A stretch of 64,000 nt of DNA from Myxococcales bacterium (GTDB lineage: Bacteria; Myxococcota; Myxococcia; Myxococcales; UBA5297), in the NCBI GenBank assembly GCA_050288705.1, contig JBNKEI010000169.1, positions 1,108-65,107 on the forward strand, given 5' to 3'. Under the pieces are notes generated by a model, which was not told the DNA's origin, searched no databases, and was given only the letters and a program-made list of their open reading frames with translations. The position numbers and the translations under genes were made by a program. Positions within the stretch are counted from its first letter, which is position 1. Every line of letters begins with the position of its first letter. Below, in pieces: positions 2,929-14,804 of the stretch.

Positions 2929-3066
2929 CACAGTAACCAGTGGACCATCACGACGGAACGAGCGCCCATGGAGCGCTCGCGCAACCAGTTCTTTTCCAGT
3001 ACCGGTTTCGCCATGAATTGCTACTGCCGCCTCGGAAGCAGCAACGTAAGCGGTGCACCTGCGGAG
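2929..3066 (-). pseudogene. Fragment of a sigma-54-dependent activator (NtrC-family AAA+ domain N-terminus)
   Basis: Minus strand reads [46 protein letters not shown], the typical bEBP Walker A region. Similarity stops before the NCAA/GAFTGA region and a stop follows about 10 codons later. Confidence 0.8.
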
Positions 3067-3113: not shown

Positions 3114-3683
3114 TCATTTTTCTTTTGCAGACAAAGGAATGGCTCTGTCTACGATAAGATTGCCAAAACGCACAGGGGGAATTGATTCGCCGGTTGATTC
3201 CTGGGCAATTTTTTTCACTGAAATATCGGGAAAGACAGCTGGAAAATCAGCCCAGGTTTTAAACGAGCTGTCACGACTAGAAGAAGTTAGAGTAAATCGC
3301 ACTGGTTTATCAGTTTGTTTATCGGAGTACGCTACTCGAAAAAACCGAATATAGGTATATGGATATGGACTAGGTGCAAATGTTTCTTCAAGATTTCCCT
3401 CCTTTAACCCTGAATTAGAAGGCAATTCTACACGAAGGACAGGCGCTGCCGGAACTTTTGCCTTTATGGATATTTTAACGCGAAACCAACATGATTCATT
3501 CTCTATTCCTGAGTCCTCTATAGTTACTTCCATTGGATTCCAGGATAGCGTACGAGAAGAAAGTTGGTTATTTTTCAGGGCTTCGGCAAAAACGTTTGTG
3601 GTACTTTTCTCTTCGTTTGCAAAAGCAAGCAATGGGACAGAAAGAAATGCTGTATAGATTATTACTTTTGACGTTCTAAACAT
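3114..3683 (-). CDS. Secreted hypothetical protein, likely partner of the upstream metalloprotease
   Basis: ORF track 3114..3737. More likely start is ATG 3683 (MFRTSKVIIYTAFLSVPLLAFA, signal peptide) with a GGAG RBS. Confidence 0.6.
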   Translation of the reverse strand: MFRTSKVIIYTAFLSVPLLAFANEEKSTTNVFAEALKNNQLSSRTLSWNPMEVTIEDSGIENESCWFRVKISIKAKVPAAPVLRVELPSNSGLKEGNLEETFAPSPYPYTYIRFFRVAYSDKQTDKPVRFTLTSSSRDSSFKTWADFPAVFPDISVKKIAQESTGESIPPVRFGNLIVDRAIPLSAKEK

Positions 3684-3727
3684 TTTGACTCCTTCCAAGA
3701 AACGACGTTTAGGCAAATTATCTACCA

Positions 3728-5056
3728 TTAGTGGCAAATTGAATTTCCAGAATCGTAGGGAAATCCAAAATATTGTAATGTATTATCGACATTAGTGCTT
3801 TCCTGTGGCGAAGCACAAACTAATGCATCAACAAAATCGACAAGGTCAGCACCTAAGGCACCGCGATCTTGTCTTTTAAATCTCGACGAGGAAATAGCGG
3901 AAAAAACCGCTTCGGTCCCCAATGCAGCTCCATCGTCTTCCCCTACTTCTGCCACATCCTTGCCATCCCAGAGATTATATAGTGCTGAGGCTACGAAACT
4001 CTCATCGATATCCTGTTCAATTCCGCCATCTAATGTAGGTAGAGCAATAGCCGATTCAGGGCTAATTTCATTATAATTGAGCCAAAAAAAACTATTTTGT
4101 TGAATATTCCAAAAATAAGGAAATGGCTGCTTGCTCCATCTTCCCATGGCACTAGTTGCAAAAAAACTAGCCCATCCTTCACTAAAGGCGAATGCAGGCT
4201 CTATCTTTTCTCCCAACAAATGTTTTCCTCCTAAACTATCATCGCGTGAATAGTTCTGCATTACATAATGACCAAGCTCATGAAGAAGGACTGGTGCTCC
4301 CCAGGCAGAAGAGCCAGATCGACTACCTCCCAGAAAAACAAATTGCTGAAACTGTACAGATGAGTTATTAACCAATAGTGTAATATTTTGGTTAGGCGGT
4401 ACATAACACGAAACACATTCCACATCCTCCTTCCAATCCTTGCCAGGCGCCCATATATATGCTATTGGTTTTAAATTTTCTAAGCGATCTTCAAGCATAT
4501 ACTTTACTACGTCTTGTAAAGCACGTGTAGCCATAGAAAATATAAAGACAGCACCTGAACCATCATCCTCTTTAATTATTGCTCGTCCTACTTTGCCTGA
4601 GCTAGGCACAGGCACAGACCACACCCATAAGTCGGCAAATACGTTAATATCTTCTTGTTTTTCTTGAAAAGAAACCGTACCTGCATTCAATACTGTAAAA
4701 ACAACCTCGTTTGTCGAGGACAATAAAGCTGGCACAAAAAGAACTTTATCGCCTTTTTTGACAGGCCTCGTAATATTAAAATCAAAAGCACCGTTTTCGT
4801 CTAACGATGATGAAGCTAAGACATTGCCATTTTTGTCTACTAATAAGGATAATAACCCCCCGGCCTTTTCCCGAAATAATTCGGTCCCTAGGACAATCTC
4901 ATCATTTTCTTTGGCTAGCCGTCGATATTGAAACTCCACTTTTCCAAATACTCTGCCATTATAGTCTTCACTAGATCTTTTATGATCATTGTCTCCTCCG
5001 CAACTAGTTGCCATCACAACCAATAACAAAAAAAGAGATGTTTTTAAGTACATCAT
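3728..5056 (-). CDS. Lipoprotein with zinc metallopeptidase (HExxH) motif
   Basis: Lipobox MATSC; LLHELGHYV followed by AFSEGWASFF (candidate third zinc ligand Glu). Confidence 0.7.
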   Translation of the reverse strand: MMYLKTSLFLLLVVMATSCGGDNDHKRSSEDYNGRVFGKVEFQYRRLAKENDEIVLGTELFREKAGGLLSLLVDKNGNVLASSSLDENGAFDFNITRPVKKGDKVLFVPALLSSTNEVVFTVLNAGTVSFQEKQEDINVFADLWVWSVPVPSSGKVGRAIIKEDDGSGAVFIFSMATRALQDVVKYMLEDRLENLKPIAYIWAPGKDWKEDVECVSCYVPPNQNITLLVNNSSVQFQQFVFLGGSRSGSSAWGAPVLLHELGHYVMQNYSRDDSLGGKHLLGEKIEPAFAFSEGWASFFATSAMGRWSKQPFPYFWNIQQNSFFWLNYNEISPESAIALPTLDGGIEQDIDESFVASALYNLWDGKDVAEVGEDDGAALGTEAVFSAISSSRFKRQDRGALGADLVDFVDALVCASPQESTNVDNTLQYFGFPYDSGNSICH

Positions 5057-5295
5057 AAATGAGCGCTTTCTTTTTCAATTAAGTTGTTTAGTCGATCCGA
5101 ATTATTCCCCTTGAGACGCTTATCATCCGCTTCCTTGTAGACAGATGGAGCACAATCGGTGCCAACCCGTAATTTTGACGGCGACTTTTCGATAAGCCTG
5201 CATGAAACGACGCTACTGCCCGCGAGCGTACTTTGTCTGGCGGGAAGCGGTTGCAATTTCATCAAGCCGACAACGGTTATCGTATGGGTTTGACT

Positions 5296-5327
5296 AGTCC
5301 AGTTTCTAAACCATTGGTCCGCAAATT
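5296..5327 (+). promoter_or_regulatory. Putative activator-binding (UAS) box, divergent copy
   Basis: AGTCCAGTTTCTAAACCATTGGTCCGCAAATT resembles the reverse complement of the boxes at 7345 and 8393. Same orientation and about 78 bp spacing relative to a sigma-54 promoter. Confidence 0.55.
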
Positions 5328-5404
5328 TTACTAATAGGCCACTACAGAGTCACTTTTTCGAGCAAACCCGCATTCAGCGATGGACAAACGACTCAATAAC
5401 TAGC

Positions 5405-5420
5405 TGGCACCGGGCATGCA
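5405..5420 (+). promoter_or_regulatory. Sigma-54 -24/-12 promoter
   Basis: TGGCACCGGGCATGCA (GG-N10-GC) upstream of 5538. Confidence 0.7.
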
Positions 5421-5537
5421 TATATACACTCATCATAAAAACAGACAGGTGGCATAAGTGGAATAATTTTATTCTATTTATGGTCACGATTTGGTTAACA
5501 AACGTAATTCAGCAATGATTAAACAAAGGAGAAAGCC

Positions 5538-5804
5538 ATGACCGGGTCACTCAAACGCCCCATTAATATCAATGGATTTGGCGAAAACGATCAAATTAGT
5601 GTTACATCAAAAAAACATGGGAGCGTTCGAATTGTTGTTACCGGTGAGTTTGGAAAAAAGAAGATTTACAACTTGACTGCCCAAGAAGCTGAGCGAGCTG
5701 TTATCAATGGAGGCAGAGGAAATAACGTCATCTGCATCGGAAGTGGTATAAATTGGGACCAGAAAATAAATGTTACATTCGGATACAACATGTTGACGAT
5801 TTAA
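5538..5804 (+). CDS. Small hypothetical protein with a degenerate RTX-like GGxGN motif
   Basis: AAGGAG RBS, own sigma-54 promoter and downstream terminator; INGGRGNNVI motif. Confidence 0.65.
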   Translation: MTGSLKRPININGFGENDQISVTSKKHGSVRIVVTGEFGKKKIYNLTAQEAERAVINGGRGNNVICIGSGINWDQKINVTFGYNMLTI

Positions 5805-5825
5805 AACTAATGGAGCATTTAATTA

Positions 5826-5859
5826 GCCGCATCCAGGATGCGGCCCTATTTCTTTCTTT
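5826..5859 (+). terminator. Intrinsic terminator
   Basis: GCCGCATCC-A-GGATGCGGC stem followed by a T-rich tract. Confidence 0.65.
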
Positions 5860-6098
5860 ATAAAGCGATCTACAACTATTGTGCTACGACTTAAGATTCC
5901 CATTGAGAAAGCGGACCAACGGGATTTTGGGCCATGAATAGTCTATTCTAAATCATTGGTTTACAATTTTTAACAATTTGTTTGATAAGCGAGTTAGTTT
6001 TTCGTATCAGCCAATTCCTGGCAAACGAATAGAGCATTAATAAAATGAACGGATAAGGAATGAGATCTCTGAAACAAAATCTTAATACCAAATCTTGG

Positions 6099-6130
6099 AA
6101 AAAATTCTTGGGCTGAAATATTCAGCCCAA
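6099..6130 (-). terminator. Intrinsic terminator for the MIIA-domain gene
   Basis: TTGGGCTGAA-ATA-TTCAGCCCAA perfect stem, with a T tract on the minus strand. Confidence 0.6.
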
Positions 6131-6188
6131 ATTTCTCGAGAATTTAAGCTACTATTTCTCGGTGATTCTTAAGGAGACGTCAACAGCA

Positions 6189-7202
6189 TCATCTAGGAAT
6201 CGAGTGTAACTTTTTATCAAGTTCACCGAATTTAAGCATGAGGTGATAGAGACTTTCGGTCCAGCGAATGCTATCCTCCTGTCGATAATGTGTTTTGTCA
6301 TCTATTGGCTTTAGATCTTGTCCCACTACTAGCTTGGAACCGCGGTCCTTGCTTCCAACTATTTCTTTGCCACCAAGAATCCAATCATCGCCGTCTCCAG
6401 CCATTTGGAATACGTCGTTGCCGCCAAAGCCGCGGTTTTCTGCGCGATACTCTCTGCCGTCATGTTTTATATCGCTCGATTTTCCTGGGCCTTTGTCAAT
6501 ATCAGAAATAGTCGCGTGATCATTGCCACAAGTTATGTCGAGCTGCTTGGTTGTGGTCCAGCCATTTTTGTTGGCAGCCGTTGTTCTCACATCGATTCGC
6601 GTACCATCCGGCAATTTGAATACTGAATCTCTCTTGAAATCCCATGTACCTCCATCGCCCTCGGCCACATGGGGATCACCAGAGACGTTCGTGGTTTTCC
6701 CCTCGGGTGATACAATTGTCCAACCTTGATTGTTTTTTTTCGAAGGAATGATTTTGTATCCACCAGGAGTAGTGTACGAGCCATTGTCATTTTTGGTTAA
6801 TTTTGGTCTATGACTGTGATGATGATGATGATGATGCCCTCCTTCTATATCATCCACAGCACCTTCAACCTCAAAAGCATCTAGTGCGTCTTTCTGATCT
6901 AGATGGAAAAAATCTGGACCCTTTTCCGAATTTTCCACCAGATTAAAATAGGCTGGATTGTCAAGAAAAAACTTGCATGCATTTTTTAAAGCCAATGGCG
7001 CCCCAGGGTTATTGTAAGCAATATCGTGCAAATCGTTTTTGTCAATTTGTGCGCAGCTGCCTTTTGCTCCTGCAATCAATTTGAAATTGTTTTTTAATAT
7101 ACGAATAGCCTTTTTATAATCCATTTTTCCCCAAGGCAAAGATCCAGAATAAGGGAAAGCCCCAGAAGGGGAATGTCCTGGAGGCATAGGTAAAATTGAC
7201 AT
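6189..7202 (-). CDS. DUF1521 / MIIA (metal-inducible autocleavage, GDPH) domain protein; putative T3SS substrate
   Basis: Start ATG 7202 with TAGGAG RBS. Ser/Pro-rich N-terminus, His-run linker, then NVSGDPHVAEGDGGTWDFKRDSVFKLPDGTRIDVRT...QLDIT, matching the DUF1521 pattern. N-terminal domain is paralogous to 7647..8255. Confidence 0.75.
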   Translation of the reverse strand: MSILPMPPGHSPSGAFPYSGSLPWGKMDYKKAIRILKNNFKLIAGAKGSCAQIDKNDLHDIAYNNPGAPLALKNACKFFLDNPAYFNLVENSEKGPDFFHLDQKDALDAFEVEGAVDDIEGGHHHHHHHSHRPKLTKNDNGSYTTPGGYKIIPSKKNNQGWTIVSPEGKTTNVSGDPHVAEGDGGTWDFKRDSVFKLPDGTRIDVRTTAANKNGWTTTKQLDITCGNDHATISDIDKGPGKSSDIKHDGREYRAENRGFGGNDVFQMAGDGDDWILGGKEIVGSKDRGSKLVVGQDLKPIDDKTHYRQEDSIRWTESLYHLMLKFGELDKKLHSIPR

Positions 7203-7249
7203 GATATTTCTCCTAATTTGGTTATGGGTTAATTCTCGACAAGACATAT

Positions 7250-7265
7250 TGCCAACATCATGCCA
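7250..7265 (-). promoter_or_regulatory. Sigma-54 -24/-12 promoter
   Basis: Minus strand TGGCATGATGTTGGCA (GG-N10-GC). Confidence 0.65.
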
Positions 7266-7344
7266 ACATGCGCTTAGCCTATTTGTTGCCTACCGGAAAT
7301 GCGGATAGTGGTTATTTAAAACCAAAGAAGAAACAAGTATTAGG

Positions 7345-7381
7345 GTTAATTTGCTGGACCAACAGTTCAGATTTCGAACTC
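7345..7381. promoter_or_regulatory. Conserved 37-bp putative activator-binding box
   Basis: GTTAATTTGCTGGACCAACAGTTCAGATTTCGAACTC, 36/37 identical to 8393..8429; contains the dyad AGTTC-N7-GAACT. Confidence 0.65.
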
Positions 7382-7646
7382 CAGCATATCTCAAGAACGC
7401 TGGTAATAAAATTGTCGATTGGGCCACAATGCTCTGGGCAAGTACAGCAAAACTCTTTAAGGTTTTGGAAATTCTCGACAAAACGGGTGGTGTCGGGAAC
7501 ATTGTGAGCAGCGCGCTCTCCCTCATCCGGTCGCGCAACTTTGTAAATAGGAAATGAAGTGACCCCATTATTTCGGGGCCACCGAAAGACAATTTTTATT
7601 CTCCTCTAAAAGCGTGTACTGCTCAACACATAACTCGCCATGTTGG

Positions 7647-8255
7647 TCAGAATCCAAATATTTTACCAACGTTTTTAAGACCGTCGGCTAATTTATTGCC
7701 GATATCCATAGCAGCATTCGTGGCGTTCTTAACCCCATCGGCTAATTTATTGCCGACATTCATAGCAGCATTCGTGGCGTTCTTAACTCCATCGGCTAAT
7801 TTATTGCCGACATTCGTGGCGGTCTTCGTGGCGGTCTTCGTGGCGGTCTTCGCAAGGGCGTACACAGAATCTAGTTTACAGTGACCATGATATCCTCCCC
7901 ACATATCTTTCATGGCACTATTAATCTCAAAAACATCTAATGCATTTTTTTTGTCAAGCCCAAAAGGCATGTTCGCGGAATTTTCTACCAGATTAAAATA
8001 GGCTGGATTATCAAGAAAAAACTTGCATGCTCTTTTTAGATCCGATGGCGCTCCAGGGTTATTGTAAGCAATATCGCGCAAATCATTTTTGCCAATTTGT
8101 CTGCAGCCGCCTTTGGCTCCAGCAATCAATTTGAAATTATTTTTTAGAACACTAAGAGCTTGTTGATAATCCATTTTTTCCCAAGGTAAAGGCTGAGGAA
8201 AACCAAAATTCTGAGGTATAGAAGGGAAATGGCGCCCCATAGGTAGTTGTGACAT
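7647..8255 (-). CDS. Putative T3SS-secreted protein; paralog of the 6189 gene N-terminus with C-terminal amphipathic repeats
   Basis: Shares MDY..A..LKNNFKLIAGAKG...DL.DIAYNNPGAP..LK.ACKFFLDNPAYFNLVENS with the 6189 gene. Tail of ATKT repeats and about three NVGNKLADGVKNATNAAM-type repeats. Confidence 0.7.
   Translation of the reverse strand: MSQLPMGRHFPSIPQNFGFPQPLPWEKMDYQQALSVLKNNFKLIAGAKGGCRQIGKNDLRDIAYNNPGAPSDLKRACKFFLDNPAYFNLVENSANMPFGLDKKNALDVFEINSAMKDMWGGYHGHCKLDSVYALAKTATKTATKTATNVGNKLADGVKNATNAAMNVGNKLADGVKNATNAAMDIGNKLADGLKNVGKIFGF
7684..7851. repeat. Intragenic tandem repeats (54-bp unit about x3; 12-bp unit x3)
   Basis: Repeated TCGGCTAATTTATTGCCGA...ATAGCAGCATTCGTGGCGTTCTTAAC units and TTCGTGGCGGTC x3. 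Confidence 0.85.
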
Positions 8256-8302
8256 GATATTTCTCCTATTTTGGTTATGAGTTAATTCTCAACAAGGCAT
8301 TT

Positions 8303-8318
8303 TGCTAATACCATGCCA
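8303..8318 (-). promoter_or_regulatory. Sigma-54 -24/-12 promoter
   Basis: Minus strand TGGCATGGTATTAGCA (GG-N10-GC). Confidence 0.7.
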
Positions 8319-8392
8319 ACGCGTATTCGCCCATTTGCTGCCTATTATAAATGCCGAATAGCCCATTTAGCATCAAAAAAGAACAGGAAAGA

Positions 8393-8429
8393 GTTAATTT
8401 GCTGGACCAACAGTTCAGAATTCGAACTC
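8393..8429. promoter_or_regulatory. Conserved 37-bp putative activator-binding box between divergent sigma-54 promoters
   Basis: GTTAATTTGCTGGACCAACAGTTCAGAATTCGAACTC lies about 75-78 bp from each of the two divergent promoters. Confidence 0.65.
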
Positions 8430-8506
8430 AGGCATTTGGCTGGGCCTAGTAATCAACGTTGTTTCACGAGAGAGATGCCGGCGCGATTCTTACACTTCAA
8501 TAATAT

Positions 8507-8522
8507 TGGCATCATTCTAGCA
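8507..8522 (+). promoter_or_regulatory. Sigma-54 -24/-12 promoter
   Basis: TGGCATCATTCTAGCA (GG-N10-GC) upstream of 8595. Confidence 0.7.
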
Positions 8523-8594: not shown

Positions 8595-8873
8595 ATGATT
8601 GGCGCAATCGTTGGCGGAATAGCAAGTCAAGCAATTGGTAAAATAGCCAGTAATGCTATCGGCAATATTATGGGCGGTGGCGGCCAAGAAGGGGCTTCGG
8701 GCATGTCTAAAGCTGAACTGGAGGAGCAACACAAAAAGAGCATGGAAGAACAATATGCTATGATGGCTCTCCAAGACAAAATGGCCCATGATAACACTAT
8801 GGCACAAATGATATCTAACATACAGAAGTCAGAAATCGATACCCTAAAAGGCATTGCAGCCAACATGAAGTAA
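8595..8873 (+). CDS. T3SS needle/pilin-like small helical protein
   Basis: 92 aa with TAGGAG RBS. C-terminus LQDKMAHDNTMAQMISNIQKSEIDTLKGIAANMK fits the Q..M......SN..K...D....I..N.K/R pattern of SctF-like filament subunits. Confidence 0.6.
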   Translation: MIGAIVGGIASQAIGKIASNAIGNIMGGGGQEGASGMSKAELEEQHKKSMEEQYAMMALQDKMAHDNTMAQMISNIQKSEIDTLKGIAANMK

Positions 8874-10001: not shown

Positions 10002-12335
10002 ATGAAATCACCTGAGGCATCAGGGGGTATTTTGGCAGTGGCACTGCTAGGTATTGCGGCATGTTCGGATAATTTTCCCGGAAAATGCAATAGTAACGCC
10101 GGTTGCCAAGGGGAAAGTAAATGCCATGAGGGTTTGTGTGTGCTCATTCCTGGACAGACCAATGGACAGACCGATGAAATAACTAATTTGATTGCCGAGC
10201 CTGGTCCTCAGCGGACACTATTGCATTGGGACGCAGTTCCAGGAGCTTTGAGTTACAACGTCTATTGGAAGAATTCTAGTGGAGTTAGTAAAAGCGATAA
10301 GTACGAAATCAGTGAAACCAACGAGCTGGTACACAGCGAGCTTGAAAATTGGCAATCCTATTATTATGCGGTAGCAGCAGTGTTACCCACCGGGGAGACA
10401 TCGCTTTCCCAGGAGGCCTGGGCGCGACCTGCTCCTCTAATCCCTGATAAGACTGTAAACGCGATTGCCCAAGGAAGCGACGGTACCGTTTATATCGGTG
10501 GACAGTTCTCTAGAATTGGACTTGCTAGCGGAAGCATATTGGCATGGAATACTATTCGTAGTCAGCCCATTCCCTTTCCGCTGGTAACAGGTTTTGTTTC
10601 TGCGATCGCTCCTGATGGAACTGGAGGGTGGTATATTGGTGGAGAATTTTACCGGGTGGATGGCGTAAAGAAAAGCGGCTTAGCTCATATTCTTGCTGAC
10701 GGCACCCTAGACCAGAATTGGAAGTCTGGTGATAATTTTTTGGGCCATGTTAATGCATTAACAGTTAACGGAGAAACCATTTACGTAGGGGGCGAGTTCT
10801 CGCGCATCGGCGGTAAGGAAAGGAATAACCTTGCGGCTATCCATTCTGACGGCACCCTAGATCTAGATTGGAAGCCTGATGCCGATGGTAAGGTAAGCGC
10901 ACTAGCAGTAAGCGGAGAAACTATTTACGTAGGCGGCGAATTCTCGCACATCGGCGGAGAGGAAAGGAAGAGCCTTGCGGCTATACATTCCGATGGCAAC
11001 CTGGACCAGAAATGGAAACACGATGTTGAGGGTCTGGTCAATACATTGGCAGTAAGCAAAAGCGGAGAAATCATTTACATAGGGGGGAATTTTTCCAAAA
11101 TTGGCATTGATGAAAGGAAAAACCTTGCGGCTATCCATTCCGACGGCACCCTAGACCAGAATTGGAAGCCCTATTCTAATTCTGGGTCTAGTGTAGCTAC
11201 GTTGGCAGTAAGCGGAGAAATCATTTACGCAGGTGGTTATTTTTCCAAAATCAATGGAGAGCTAAGGAAAAACCTCGTGGCCATTCATTCCGATGGCCGC
11301 CTAGACCAGAATTGGAAGCCCGAAGCTAATAGTGGTGTAGTAGAGTTGATAGTAAGCGGAGAAACCGTTTACGTGGGGGGGGCTTTTTTCAAAATCAATG
11401 ATACACCACGGAGAAACTTGGCGGCAATAAAAGTCGACGGTACTCTGGACCAGAATTGGAGTCCCGAACCCAATGGTGTTGTGTCTGCGTTGGCAGTAAG
11501 TGGAGAGAATATCGTTGCAGGGGGCAAATTTGCCAGTATCGGCGGAGAATCAAGAAAGTACCTTGCCGCAATAAATGCCGACGGTTCCCTCGGCCAAGAC
11601 TGGAAGCCCGAGCCTAATGGTGTCGTGTCTGCGTTGGCAGTAAATGGCCAAACCGTTTACGTAGGTGGTGCTTTTTCCAGTATTGGGGAGGCTTCAAGAA
11701 AAAAATTTGCAGTAATAAAAGCCGATGACGGTACCCTAGACCCGAATTCTAATTGGGATCTCAGGCCCGATAATTCTATACTTGCCTTGGCAGTAGAGGG
11801 AAAAAGAATTTATGTGGGCGGTGAGTTTTCCACTATCGGCGGAGTGGCAAAAAAGTACCTTGCCTCAATAAATGCCAACGATGGCACCCTGGACTCGAAT
11901 TGGAATCCTAATCCCGAAGGAGTTGTCTCGGCATTGGCAATAAGCGGCGAAACCATTTATGTGGGTGGCGAATTTGAAAATATTAGCGGAGGGTCACACA
12001 AGCATCTCGCAGCAATAAAAGCCTCCGACGGCAGCCTGGACACGAATTGGAATCCTAACCCTAATGAAGCTGTCTCGGCATTGGCAGTAAATGGAGAAAC
12101 CGTATACGTAGCAGGCAATTTTACCAGCATTGGCGAAGGACAAGAGAAATATCTTGCGGCCATTCTTGCCAACGGTATCGGTACTCTTAACAAGAATTGG
12201 AATCGTCCGCCTGCTACCTACTCTGCCGTATCTGCATTGGCAACAAGTGGAAAAACCCTTTTCATAGGTGGCAGTTTTACCAGCATCGACTACCATTTCC
12301 CCCAAACCAACTTCACCAACTTGAGCTTACCCTGA
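10002..12335 (+). CDS. Lipoprotein: Cys-rich module, FN3 domain and delta-60/DUF5122-like beta-propeller repeats (copy 1)
   Basis: Lipobox IAAC; C-x5-C-x5-C-x4-C module; LHWDAVPGALSYNVYW...YYYAVAAV (FN3); about 11-12 repeats of V.ALAVSGETIYVGG.F..IGG..R.NLAAI..DG.LD.NW.P. Confidence 0.85.
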   Translation: MKSPEASGGILAVALLGIAACSDNFPGKCNSNAGCQGESKCHEGLCVLIPGQTNGQTDEITNLIAEPGPQRTLLHWDAVPGALSYNVYWKNSSGVSKSDKYEISETNELVHSELENWQSYYYAVAAVLPTGETSLSQEAWARPAPLIPDKTVNAIAQGSDGTVYIGGQFSRIGLASGSILAWNTIRSQPIPFPLVTGFVSAIAPDGTGGWYIGGEFYRVDGVKKSGLAHILADGTLDQNWKSGDNFLGHVNALTVNGETIYVGGEFSRIGGKERNNLAAIHSDGTLDLDWKPDADGKVSALAVSGETIYVGGEFSHIGGEERKSLAAIHSDGNLDQKWKHDVEGLVNTLAVSKSGEIIYIGGNFSKIGIDERKNLAAIHSDGTLDQNWKPYSNSGSSVATLAVSGEIIYAGGYFSKINGELRKNLVAIHSDGRLDQNWKPEANSGVVELIVSGETVYVGGAFFKINDTPRRNLAAIKVDGTLDQNWSPEPNGVVSALAVSGENIVAGGKFASIGGESRKYLAAINADGSLGQDWKPEPNGVVSALAVNGQTVYVGGAFSSIGEASRKKFAVIKADDGTLDPNSNWDLRPDNSILALAVEGKRIYVGGEFSTIGGVAKKYLASINANDGTLDSNWNPNPEGVVSALAISGETIYVGGEFENISGGSHKHLAAIKASDGSLDTNWNPNPNEAVSALAVNGETVYVAGNFTSIGEGQEKYLAAILANGIGTLNKNWNRPPATYSAVSALATSGKTLFIGGSFTSIDYHFPQTNFTNLSLP

Positions 12336-12350
12336 AAAAGATTTCTATAA

Positions 12351-12434
12351 GGTTTTTCATTATTTCTTGGAATCGGGTAGCCCTTTCAAGAAAAAAGTAT
12401 TGGCAAGCAAGGTTTTATTAAGCGTGGGAATTTG
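12351..12434 (+). pseudogene. Vestigial 3' end of a PEGA-domain gene
   Basis: Translates FFIISWNR... then, after a frameshift, ASKVLLSVG; compare FFYVSWDR...TSQVLFTVGGNF at the end of 14883..16331. Confidence 0.6.
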
Positions 12435-12467
12435 GAACGTGAGCTATAAAGAAAGGCTTAATTCACC

Positions 12468-14804
12468 ATGAAATCACCTGCGGCATCAGGGGGTATTTTG
12501 GCAGTGGCGCTGCTAAATATTGCGGCATGTTCGGTTAATTTTCCCGGAAGATGCAGTAGTAACGCCGATTGCCAAGGAGAAAGCGAATGCCGTGAGGGTT
12601 TGTGTGTGCACATTTCTGGACAAGCCAATGGGCAGACCAATGAAATAGCTAATTTGATTGCCGAGCCGGGTCCTCAGCGAACACTGTTGCGTTGGGACGC
12701 AGTTCCCGGAGCTTCGAGTTACAAAGTCTATTGGAAGAATTCCAGCGGAGTAAGTAAAAGCGATAAGCACGAAATCAGCGAAACCAACGAGCTGGTACAC
12801 AGCAAACTTGAAAATTGGCAACCCTATTATTATGCGGTAGCAGCAGTGTTACCCACCGGGGAGACCTCGCTTTCCCAGGAGGCTTGGGCGCGACCTGCGC
12901 CTCTCATACCTGATAGCCCTGTAAACGCAATAGCCCAAGGAAGCGACGGTACTGTTTATATAGGTGGAGCTTTTTCCCGAATTGGCCCTGTATGCGGAGG
13001 GGTAGTAGCCTGGGATACCGCCCGTAACCGCCAAAGCCCCTTTCCACTGGTAACAGGCTCTGTTTATGCGATCGCTCCCGATGGAACTGGAGGGTGGTAT
13101 ATTGGGGGAACGTTTCGCCAGGTGGATGGCATAAATAAAACTGGGTTAGCTCATATTCTTGCCAACGGCACCCTAGATCCAGTTTGGAACGTTAATGGTT
13201 TTTCGGGCCATATCGAAACATTGGCAGTAAGCGGAGAAACCATTTACGTCGGTGGCAACTTCTCGCTCGTCGGTGAAGAGCAAAGGAATAACCTTGCGGC
13301 TATCCATTCCGACGGCACCCTAGATCTCGATTGGAAGTCTTATGCCGATGGTCCAGTCCTTTCATTAGCAGTAAGCGAAAGTGGAAAAATCATTTACGTA
13401 GGGGGTTCTTTTTCTAAAATTGGCACTGATGATAGGAAAAACCTTGCGGCTATCCATTCCGACGGTATTCTAGACCAGAATTGGAAGCCCGATGCTGATG
13501 GTCAGGTCAATGCATTGGCATTGAGCGAAAGTGGAGAATTCATTTACGTAGGGGGGAGGTTTTCCAAAATTGGAACTGATGATAGGAAAAGCCTAGCGGC
13601 TATCCATTCCAGCGGCAGCCTAGATCAAGTTTGGAAACCCAAAGTTAAATCTGAGTCTAATGTAGTTACGTTGGCAGTGAGCGGAGAAATAATTTATGTA
13701 GGTGGTTATTTTTCCGAAATTGATGAGGAGAGAAGGTGGAACCTCGCGGCCATTCATTCCGATGGCAAACTAGATCGGAATTGGAAGCCCAAAGCTAATA
13801 ATGGTGTAATGAAGCTGGAAGTAAGCGGAGAAAATGTTTATGTGGGGGGTTCTTTTTCCTCAATCAATGAAAAACCACGGGGGGGCTTTGCGGTAATAAA
13901 AGCCAACGGTACTTTGGACCAGAATTGGAGGCCCGAGCCTGATGGACATATACACGCGTTGGCAGTAAGTGGAGAGAATATCGTTGCAGGAGGCGAATTT
14001 ACCAGTATCGGAGGGGAGCCGCGAAAGCACCTTGCCGCAATAAATGCCGACGGTACCCTGGACCAAGACTGGAAGCCCGAGCCCGATGACAATATATATG
14101 CGTTGGCAGTAAATGACCAAACCGTTTACCTAGGCGGCGCTTTTTCCAATATTGGTGAGGTTTCAAGAAAGAGATTTGCAGTAATAAAAGCCGATGACGG
14201 TACCCTAGACCCTAATTCGAATTGGTATCCCGAGCCCGATGACTCTGTACTTGCCTTGGCAGTAAAGGGAAAAAGTATTTATATGGGCGGTAAGTTTTCC
14301 ACTATAGGAGGAGCGGCAAAAAAGTACCTTGCCGCAATAAATGCCGACGATGGCACCCTAGACCCGAATTGGAATCCTAATCCCGAAGGAGTTGTCTCAG
14401 CATTGGCAATAAGCGGAGAAACTCTTTATGTGGGTGGCGAATTTGAGAATATTGGCGGAGGGTCAAACAAGCATCTCGCGGCAGTAAAAGCCGCCGACGG
14501 CAGCCTGGACCCGAACTGGAATCCTAGCCCTAATGAAGCTGTCTTGGCATTGGCAGTAAACGGAGAAACCGTATACGTAGGCGGCAATTTTACCAGCATC
14601 GGCGGAGAATCACAGAGATATATTGCGGCCATTCTTGCCAACGGTACCGGCACTGTGAACAAAAAATGGAATCGTCCGACTGCTATCTACTCTGCCGTAT
14701 CTGCATTGGCAGCAAGTAAAAAAACCCTTTTCATAGGTGGCAGTTTTACCAGCATCGACTACCATTTTCCCCAAGCCAGGTTTACCAACTTGAGCTTACC
14801 CTGA
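12468..14804 (+). CDS. Lipoprotein: Cys-rich module, FN3 domain and beta-propeller repeats (copy 2, tandem paralog)
   Basis: Colinear with 10002..12335, with near-identical termini and upstream sequence (GGAATTTGGAAC.TGAGCTATAAAGAAAGGCTTA.TTCACCATG). Confidence 0.85.
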   Translation: MKSPAASGGILAVALLNIAACSVNFPGRCSSNADCQGESECREGLCVHISGQANGQTNEIANLIAEPGPQRTLLRWDAVPGASSYKVYWKNSSGVSKSDKHEISETNELVHSKLENWQPYYYAVAAVLPTGETSLSQEAWARPAPLIPDSPVNAIAQGSDGTVYIGGAFSRIGPVCGGVVAWDTARNRQSPFPLVTGSVYAIAPDGTGGWYIGGTFRQVDGINKTGLAHILANGTLDPVWNVNGFSGHIETLAVSGETIYVGGNFSLVGEEQRNNLAAIHSDGTLDLDWKSYADGPVLSLAVSESGKIIYVGGSFSKIGTDDRKNLAAIHSDGILDQNWKPDADGQVNALALSESGEFIYVGGRFSKIGTDDRKSLAAIHSSGSLDQVWKPKVKSESNVVTLAVSGEIIYVGGYFSEIDEERRWNLAAIHSDGKLDRNWKPKANNGVMKLEVSGENVYVGGSFSSINEKPRGGFAVIKANGTLDQNWRPEPDGHIHALAVSGENIVAGGEFTSIGGEPRKHLAAINADGTLDQDWKPEPDDNIYALAVNDQTVYLGGAFSNIGEVSRKRFAVIKADDGTLDPNSNWYPEPDDSVLALAVKGKSIYMGGKFSTIGGAAKKYLAAINADDGTLDPNWNPNPEGVVSALAISGETLYVGGEFENIGGGSNKHLAAVKAADGSLDPNWNPSPNEAVLALAVNGETVYVGGNFTSIGGESQRYIAAILANGTGTVNKKWNRPTAIYSAVSALAASKKTLFIGGSFTSIDYHFPQARFTNLSLP

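Follow-up and report, generated by a model that had tools for sequence, protein, structure and literature searches.

The 64,000-nucleotide window analysed here (G000:C169:1108-65107, where G000 is a 4.7-Mb genome with 46% GC from an uncultured member of the Myxococcota and the C-numbers, here and below, are its contigs) carries three copies of a 37-bp box upstream of sigma-54 promoters. Judging from the sequence, it is very probable that this box is an upstream activator site for one bacterial enhancer-binding protein (bEBP), and that some of its copies would act in both directions. A first-pass annotation of the same DNA had already suggested a sigma-54 enhancer site. Two findings strengthen this proposal: unrelated contigs carry three additional copies, each accompanied by a sigma-54 site, and the same architecture occurs in other bacteria. 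The broader suggestion that the motif could define a whole regulon survives in a reduced form, as a small predicted regulon of eight promoters at six boxes, which is not the T3SS (type III secretion system) regulon.

The box consists of two imperfect palindromes of 17 bp, separated by a 3-bp gap and repeating with a 20-bp period, with the consensus RGTYHR-N5-YDRACY and a GT-N11-AC core. This core is present in 11 of the 12 units of the genome, and two units at period 20 are found in all six copies. The first-pass annotation had described the element through the string AATTTGC(T)GGACCAA, which indeed occurs exactly three times in the 4.7-Mb genome, always within this stretch, and corresponds to most of one unit plus the linker. 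It had also described an AGTTC-N7-GAACT dyad, which is exact only at 7364 and 8412 but reads AGTCC-N7-AAACC in the unit at 5296, and which is one of the two units rather than the centre of the dyad. A tandem duplication of about 1.05 kb copied box, promoter, and gene start (7344/7265 and 8392/8318). The four promoters of the earlier description have three boxes between them rather than four, two of which derive from this duplication. We also considered a model with a single dyad of 35 bp, in which the duplicated copies would be a variant of 37 bp, but it linked them only weakly (6-12 bits, with 2-105 sites scoring higher); since a single 35-mer fitted the duplicated copies poorly, the two-unit model was adopted.

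A loose genome search found further near-identical copies on C39, C63, and C105, each of which ranked first in leave-one-out tests, and the pattern at one mismatch gives exactly six sites genome-wide. Within the window, the tandem pattern has three matches, compared with 0.00 in 100 shuffles. When a symmetric 17-bp matrix was trained on the C39, C63, and C105 copies only and applied at period 20, the held-out copies at 5296, 7344, and 8392 scored 31.3, 24.5, and 22.2 bits, respectively; no other site in 4.7 Mb exceeded the window copies, and the one at 5296 was the top site outside the training set. A matrix built from the duplicated pair only recovered the remaining four copies with 0, 0, 0, and 3 non-seed sites above them. 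Furthermore, when periods from 15 to 44 were compared, intergenic pairs with a sigma-54 site were found at period 20 only. Contigs of near-identical strains span one box with zero differences, which is uninformative.

All copies of the box are associated with sigma-54 consensus sites. The genome has one rpoN gene (a single PF04552 match, on C9, E 2.7e-63), 27 PF00158 matches, 24 of them sigma-54 activator domains with E below 1e-24, and has 19 HTH_8 matches. The GG-N10-GC sites with T that had been listed at 5405(+), 7265(-), 8318(-), and 8507(+) are all present, and there is a fifth promoter, at 5164(-), that the earlier description lacked; the box at 5296 is therefore also flanked by divergent promoters. 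This makes three boxes and five promoters in the window, and six boxes and eight promoters in the genome, where gene starts lie on the same strand downstream of the five window sites and of the three on other contigs. A TGGCAY-N7-GCW site was found within 50-240 bp of all six boxes, compared with 0.98% of 20,000 random intergenic positions, and three of the six boxes were discovered from the box alone, without use of the promoter. As had been proposed, the box at 8392-8428 is centred between the promoters at 8318 and 8507 (93 and 98 bp). At the four listed promoters, for which about 75-83 bp had been given, the edge-to-promoter gaps are 73, 79, 74, and 79 bp. The claim of a fixed spacing, by contrast, had to be abandoned: the distance from box centre to GG is 85, 92, 93, 98, 98, 151, 175, or 234 bp across the genome, so near-constant spacing holds for this locus alone. 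These distances reveal no helical phasing of box to promoter, and the search for an IHF consensus between the two returned only matches with up to 2 mismatches, which are uninformative.

If the box is an activator site, two dimers would bind to its units, about two helical turns apart and on nearly the same helical face, and their oligomerisation would form the AAA+ ring that contacts the sigma-54 holoenzyme through looping and opens the promoter. Given the symmetry of the site, a single box, at 5296 as at 8392, would serve both opposite promoters and drive two divergent transcripts. This mechanism is derived from established knowledge of bEBPs and from the paper on NmpR, which states that each promoter has two to three enhancer sites for NtrC-like activators (PMC11841059).

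Similar arrays exist in other bacteria. A scan of sequence collections for TGGCA plus the tandem pattern returned 27 loci (6 from GTDB and 21 from metagenomes, with a Syntrophomonadaceae locus, L090, among them). The -12 GC, which was outside the search pattern, is present at 10 of these loci and, after collapsing them by eye, in 5 of 17 families (binomial p 0.003 at 1/16 and 0.02 at 0.1). In six loci of one lineage, three near-perfect AGTCTA-N5-TAGACT units with a 20-bp period precede a TTGG(C/T)ATT-N3-TTTG(C/A) site, and these triple arrays show the 17-bp unit and the 20-bp period independently of the window. The array lies immediately behind the 3′ end of a bEBP gene at L095 and L098 and about 640 bp away from one at L102; the best family for the bEBPs of L098 and L102 is LuxO, below its cut-off. 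From sequence, this lineage, with its array next to a LuxO-like bEBP, would seem to represent a clean regulon. Triple arrays of this kind are seen before sigma-54 promoters of several different genes (L094, L095, L096, L098, L102, L108, L109, and L112). An exact palindrome scan of the genome contig collection and a specific 35-mer scan of metagenome contigs gave 0 matches each.

Several observations weigh against the box being the activator site of a bEBP. No cognate bEBP gene adjoins any of the six boxes, and even the asymmetric inner bases are shared by the four non-duplicate copies, beyond what a homodimer would need. The C105 promoter is 234 bp away from its box, and two copies of another motif are nearer. 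Conservation across the order is also lacking: the box was not found in 300 genomes of the same order at one mismatch, with an AT-rich pattern that disfavours GC-rich genomes, and a GC-tolerant pattern gave 6 matches, all within open reading frames (ORFs), compared with 3 control matches. The expectation that the box would be conserved in orthologous promoters failed at all 29 distant loci encoding DUF1521 proteins, the family of one window target, where the pair scored 0 bits or less. In addition, 12 genomes of the same family had 0 boxes at 3 mismatches, and a DNA search of 40 relatives found no homologous promoter. Among the outside arrays, 17 of the 27 have no -12 GC beside the TGGCA match. 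Three of these 17 combine a TTGGTA variant with the array of L094, and two, L106 and L111, adjoin genes that look by eye like TetR genes.

The last two loci, whose arrays match the pattern without a sigma-54 -12 element, indicate that such arrays are not exclusive to bEBPs, and one could imagine the box as the operator of a different regulator, for instance a TetR-type repressor bound as paired dimers, that modulates promoters activated by other means; the second motif of C105 might then be the true activator site. We consider this unlikely, given that all six copies are at enhancer distance and none lies over a promoter, that none of the 38 genome-wide matches to a second motif, GATCAAnTTGATC (see below), offers the window promoters an alternative activator site, and that inspection revealed no TetR-like ORF beside any copy. 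It is very unlikely that the 37-mer instead stems from a mobile element that took promoters along, as a copied relic or as a recombination site, and has no present regulatory role. Four copies are nearly identical and have a single orientation relative to the promoter, repeats or insertion sequence remnants are found nearby, and of 301 genomes only this one has the motif. However, the flanks of non-paralogous copies are unrelated and similarity stops at the box edges (maximum z of 2.2 in 20 comparisons), the gaps to the promoter range from 66 to 215 bp, the diverged copies retain the GT-N11-AC cores and the period despite changed inner bases, and the same design precedes sigma-54 promoters in unrelated genomes.

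A wider role, in which the box would activate the T3SS regulon as a whole, is hardly credible and already largely refuted. It was attractive because two window targets look T3SS-related (a DUF1521 protein and a 92-aa ORF with weak HrpA likeness), because the genome encodes a scattered non-flagellar system (SctV on C29, SctR on C198, and SctJ on C38), and because a sigma-54 bEBP regulon in Desulfovibrio covers T3SS genes (PMC4641369). The hits that had been anticipated before sct operons are nevertheless missing: none of the six sites precedes sct genes, and there is neither a box near C29:35312, C198:5266-8448, or C38:20041-25931 nor a PF00158 match in these stretches. Instead, gene groups of the C38 T3SS cluster, the C29 group, and the pilin-like genes on C45 carry sites of the G(A/C)AAC-N16-CGATAA type, and the C38 cluster contains a FliA-like sigma factor (family match below the cut-off); sctV has neither a FliA-like site nor the strict sigma-54 pattern. 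Three other box targets show no T3SS link.

As for the protein that would bind to the box, an FHA-type bEBP at C136:57035-57945, cut by the contig end and 552 aa long in another assembly (P0121), is a weak lead based on sequence. Remnants of its gene occur in the window and at C63:3159-3406, both at ends of operons predicted to be box-driven and less than 6 kb from boxes, a zone that covers about 1% of the genome. The SKTTLIKKI recognition helix of this bEBP is similar to the SKATIFNKL of the bEBPs beside outside arrays. On the other hand, the promoter next to it has no box, and 85 of the 92 genomes in family f7 carry its orthologue with no box close to it (in the 29 loci compared, the best pair scored 7.9 bits). 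A helix-turn-helix comparison with three other box-bearing genomes did not bring out a shared activator.

Table 1. Boxes, sigma-54 promoters, and associated genes in the window.
Feature	Position	Strand	Remarks
Box 1	5296..5332		Units 5296-5312 and 5316-5332; between divergent sigma-54 promoters
Box 2	7344..7380		Units 7344-7360 and 7364-7380; same duplication as box 3
Box 3	8392..8428		Units 8392-8408 and 8412-8428; centred between the divergent promoters 8318/8507
Sigma-54 site TGGCACCGATTGTGCT	5149..5164	-	Fifth site, 108 nt before the 442-aa gene; absent from the first-pass annotation
Sigma-54 -24/-12 site TGGCACCGGGCATGCA	5405..5420	+	Before the 88-aa ORF; 19.7 bits with a matrix partly trained on these sites
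Sigma-54 site TGGCATGATGTTGGCA	7250..7265	-	Weakest -12 element; promoter pattern search
Sigma-54 site TGGCATGGTATTAGCA	8303..8318	-	Promoter pattern search
Sigma-54 site TGGCATCATTCTAGCA	8507..8522	+	Promoter pattern search
bEBP AAA+ gene remnant	2929..3060	-	68 nt identical to the C136 contig end
207-aa ORF	3114-3737	-	Second of the two-gene unit; no Pfam family over cut-off
442-aa lipoprotein-like ORF	3728-5056	-	Two-gene unit behind the 5164 promoter (unit 3114-5056); no Pfam family over cut-off
88-aa ORF	5538..5804	+	Family unassigned; atlas features hint only weakly at haemolysin-type Ca-binding proteins (127-128 of 256 in common)
338-aa DUF1521 protein	6189..7205	-	PF07481, E 7e-10
202-aa ORF, paralogous to the DUF1521 protein's N-terminal part	7647..8255	-	With 18-aa repeats
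92-aa ORF	8595..8873	+	Weak HrpA-type T3SS pilin likeness, E 0.0015, 18.9 bits vs. a cut-off of 34

Taken together, the genes behind the boxes make up a predicted small regulon whose products would be mostly exported or of surface type (Table 1). Outside the window, the targets are a 216-aa ORF of no family with the look, by inspection, of an outer-membrane barrel (C39), a beta-helix/GH115-C protein (C63), and an 812-aa ORF with no family over the cut-off (C105). The 88-aa ORF has no homologue among longer proteins. A second comparison of the 92-aa ORF with HrpA gave 0.88, which is a lead only, and this ORF is not an orthologue of the myxococcal pilin-like family, which is located on C45. The DUF1521 family is presumably tied to NopE-type secreted proteins, with which literature titles are consistent; its named homologues belong mainly to Hyalangium, Stigmatella, Archangium, and Corallococcus and some to Acidobacteriota, which suggests a Myxococcales-type organism. 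Of 29 loci with a homologue, 4 have it immediately after sctV and 11 have it next to pilin-like ORFs. These neighbours make a T3SS link plausible for two or three targets only. Within the 202-aa ORF, window 7670-7852 contains 54-nt (18-aa) and 12-nt repeats. Further along, window 10002-14804 encodes two paralogues in tandem, each about 778 aa long, that carry DUF5122 beta-propeller repeats (by a Pfam test of the first), followed by a PEGA-like and Ser/Thr-kinase-like module. Elsewhere in the genome, two bEBPs adjoin the flagellar gene cluster on C152, and at C125:4105 an ORF labelled by inspection as nifH-like lies behind a sigma-54 site.

In the relatives, the homologues of the DUF1521 gene and the 92-aa ORF appear to be under a different promoter. 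The motif G(A/C)AAC-N16-CGATAAT was found in 18 of the 29 DUF1521 loci and in 18 of the 24 loci matched by the 92-aa ORF in the same order, whereas a plausible sigma-54 site was seen in only 1 of the 29 (L032). That site is preceded by three GRTGAC-N4-GTCAYC palindromes and may represent an independent switch to sigma-54 control. The sigma-28-like motif is seen before T3SS-associated genes across the order (L026-L051 and L062-L085), and its copies in our genome are at C38:24554 and on C45, C29, C97, C183, C156, C131, C99, C65, C92, C17, C14, and C150. For four window genes, the best FliA-like promoter scored 4-5 bits, a weak negative because 3 of the 12 sites used for training were out of register; the same scan, with this limit, gave its best score, 12.4 bits, 287 nt upstream of 5538. 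A title-level literature search found nothing on the box motif or on the FliA-like promoter in Myxococcales, with subscription journals largely outside its coverage.

A de novo search of regions upstream of sigma-54 sites, excluding those with a box, found a different motif, GATCAAnTTGATC, which precedes 9 of 38 strong candidate promoters and 1 of 108 weak ones, compared with 0.6% of random 270-mers; the discovery set is among the nine. The palindrome GATCAA-N-TTGATC, frequently present two or three times, lies 25-160 bp upstream of sigma-54 sites at C105:6515 and 6539, C61:2094, C69:24076 and 17022, C207:161581, C189:622, C40:4104, C146:32733, C172:965, C177:20446, C159:21822, C7:36984, and around window 30380. 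Many of the genes behind it have low-complexity N-termini, as in T3SS substrates, and this palindrome is probably the site of another bEBP with a regulon larger than that of the box.

It is possible, though we hold this only tentatively, that the DUF1521 pair and the HrpA-like gene moved off the FliA-like promoter of their relatives to a private bidirectional sigma-54 enhancer, making three tiers of T3SS control. The first would be the FliA-like G(A/C)AAC-N16-CGATAAT promoter for the pilin and part of the core genes, the second the GATCAAnTTGATC enhancers for many substrate-like genes, and the third the GT-N11-AC tandem for a small subset. If so, the three motifs would jointly provide a route to listing the substrates secreted by the myxococcal T3SS, a poorly understood system. 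The more useful by-product is the pair of further promoter motifs marking T3SS-associated genes, one of them conserved across the order, which could be used for substrate prediction. For the box itself, the matrix and target list constitute a precise, testable predicted binding motif for an uncharacterised activator in uncultured Myxococcota, and twice within 3.3 kb a single putative enhancer is positioned so that it could serve a pair of divergent promoters, even if the mechanism would be a textbook one.

Tandem interrupted palindromes upstream of a sigma-54 promoter are familiar from NtrC at glnAp2, and the box has the architecture of an NtrC-type enhancer. Its sequence differs from the motifs of the known systems compared. 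One of the Clostridiales motifs (PMC6615313) may match it, which bears on the Syntrophomonadaceae copy at L090. In Desulfovibrio, the sites of the bEBP DVUA0100 are likewise common to divergent sigma-54 promoters and have T3SS-linked targets, but its motif is GCCAAC-N3-GTTGGC (15 bp), its sites precede T3SS operons, and its gene lies inside them (PMC4641369); the box shares neither the motif, compared by eye, nor the siting, nor the bEBP placement. Among the supplement rows matched in the same paper, DVU2894 and DVU3023 have similar half-sites, GTCA...TGAC and AGTCC...AGACT, around an AT-rich spacer, with units of 16 and 18 bp rather than the 17 of the box (PMC4641369). The sequence bound by Nla28 also differs from the box. 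In Myxococcus xanthus, PexR binds to tandem interrupted palindromes upstream of a sigma-54 promoter, but these read CACCG-n6-CGGTG and have other targets (PMC12754779). NmpR of the same species binds to GCGCA-N5-TGCGC at sites 14 bp apart and controls oxygen-use genes, in contrast to the RGTYHR-N5-YDRACY units, 3-bp gap, and exported-protein targets of the box, which does not match the NmpR motif. Nevertheless, NmpR is an NtrC-like activator with two dyad sites, S1 and S2, upstream of a sigma-54 site, and its regulon, like the one predicted here, is small, multi-locus, and from the same broad lineage (PMC11841059).

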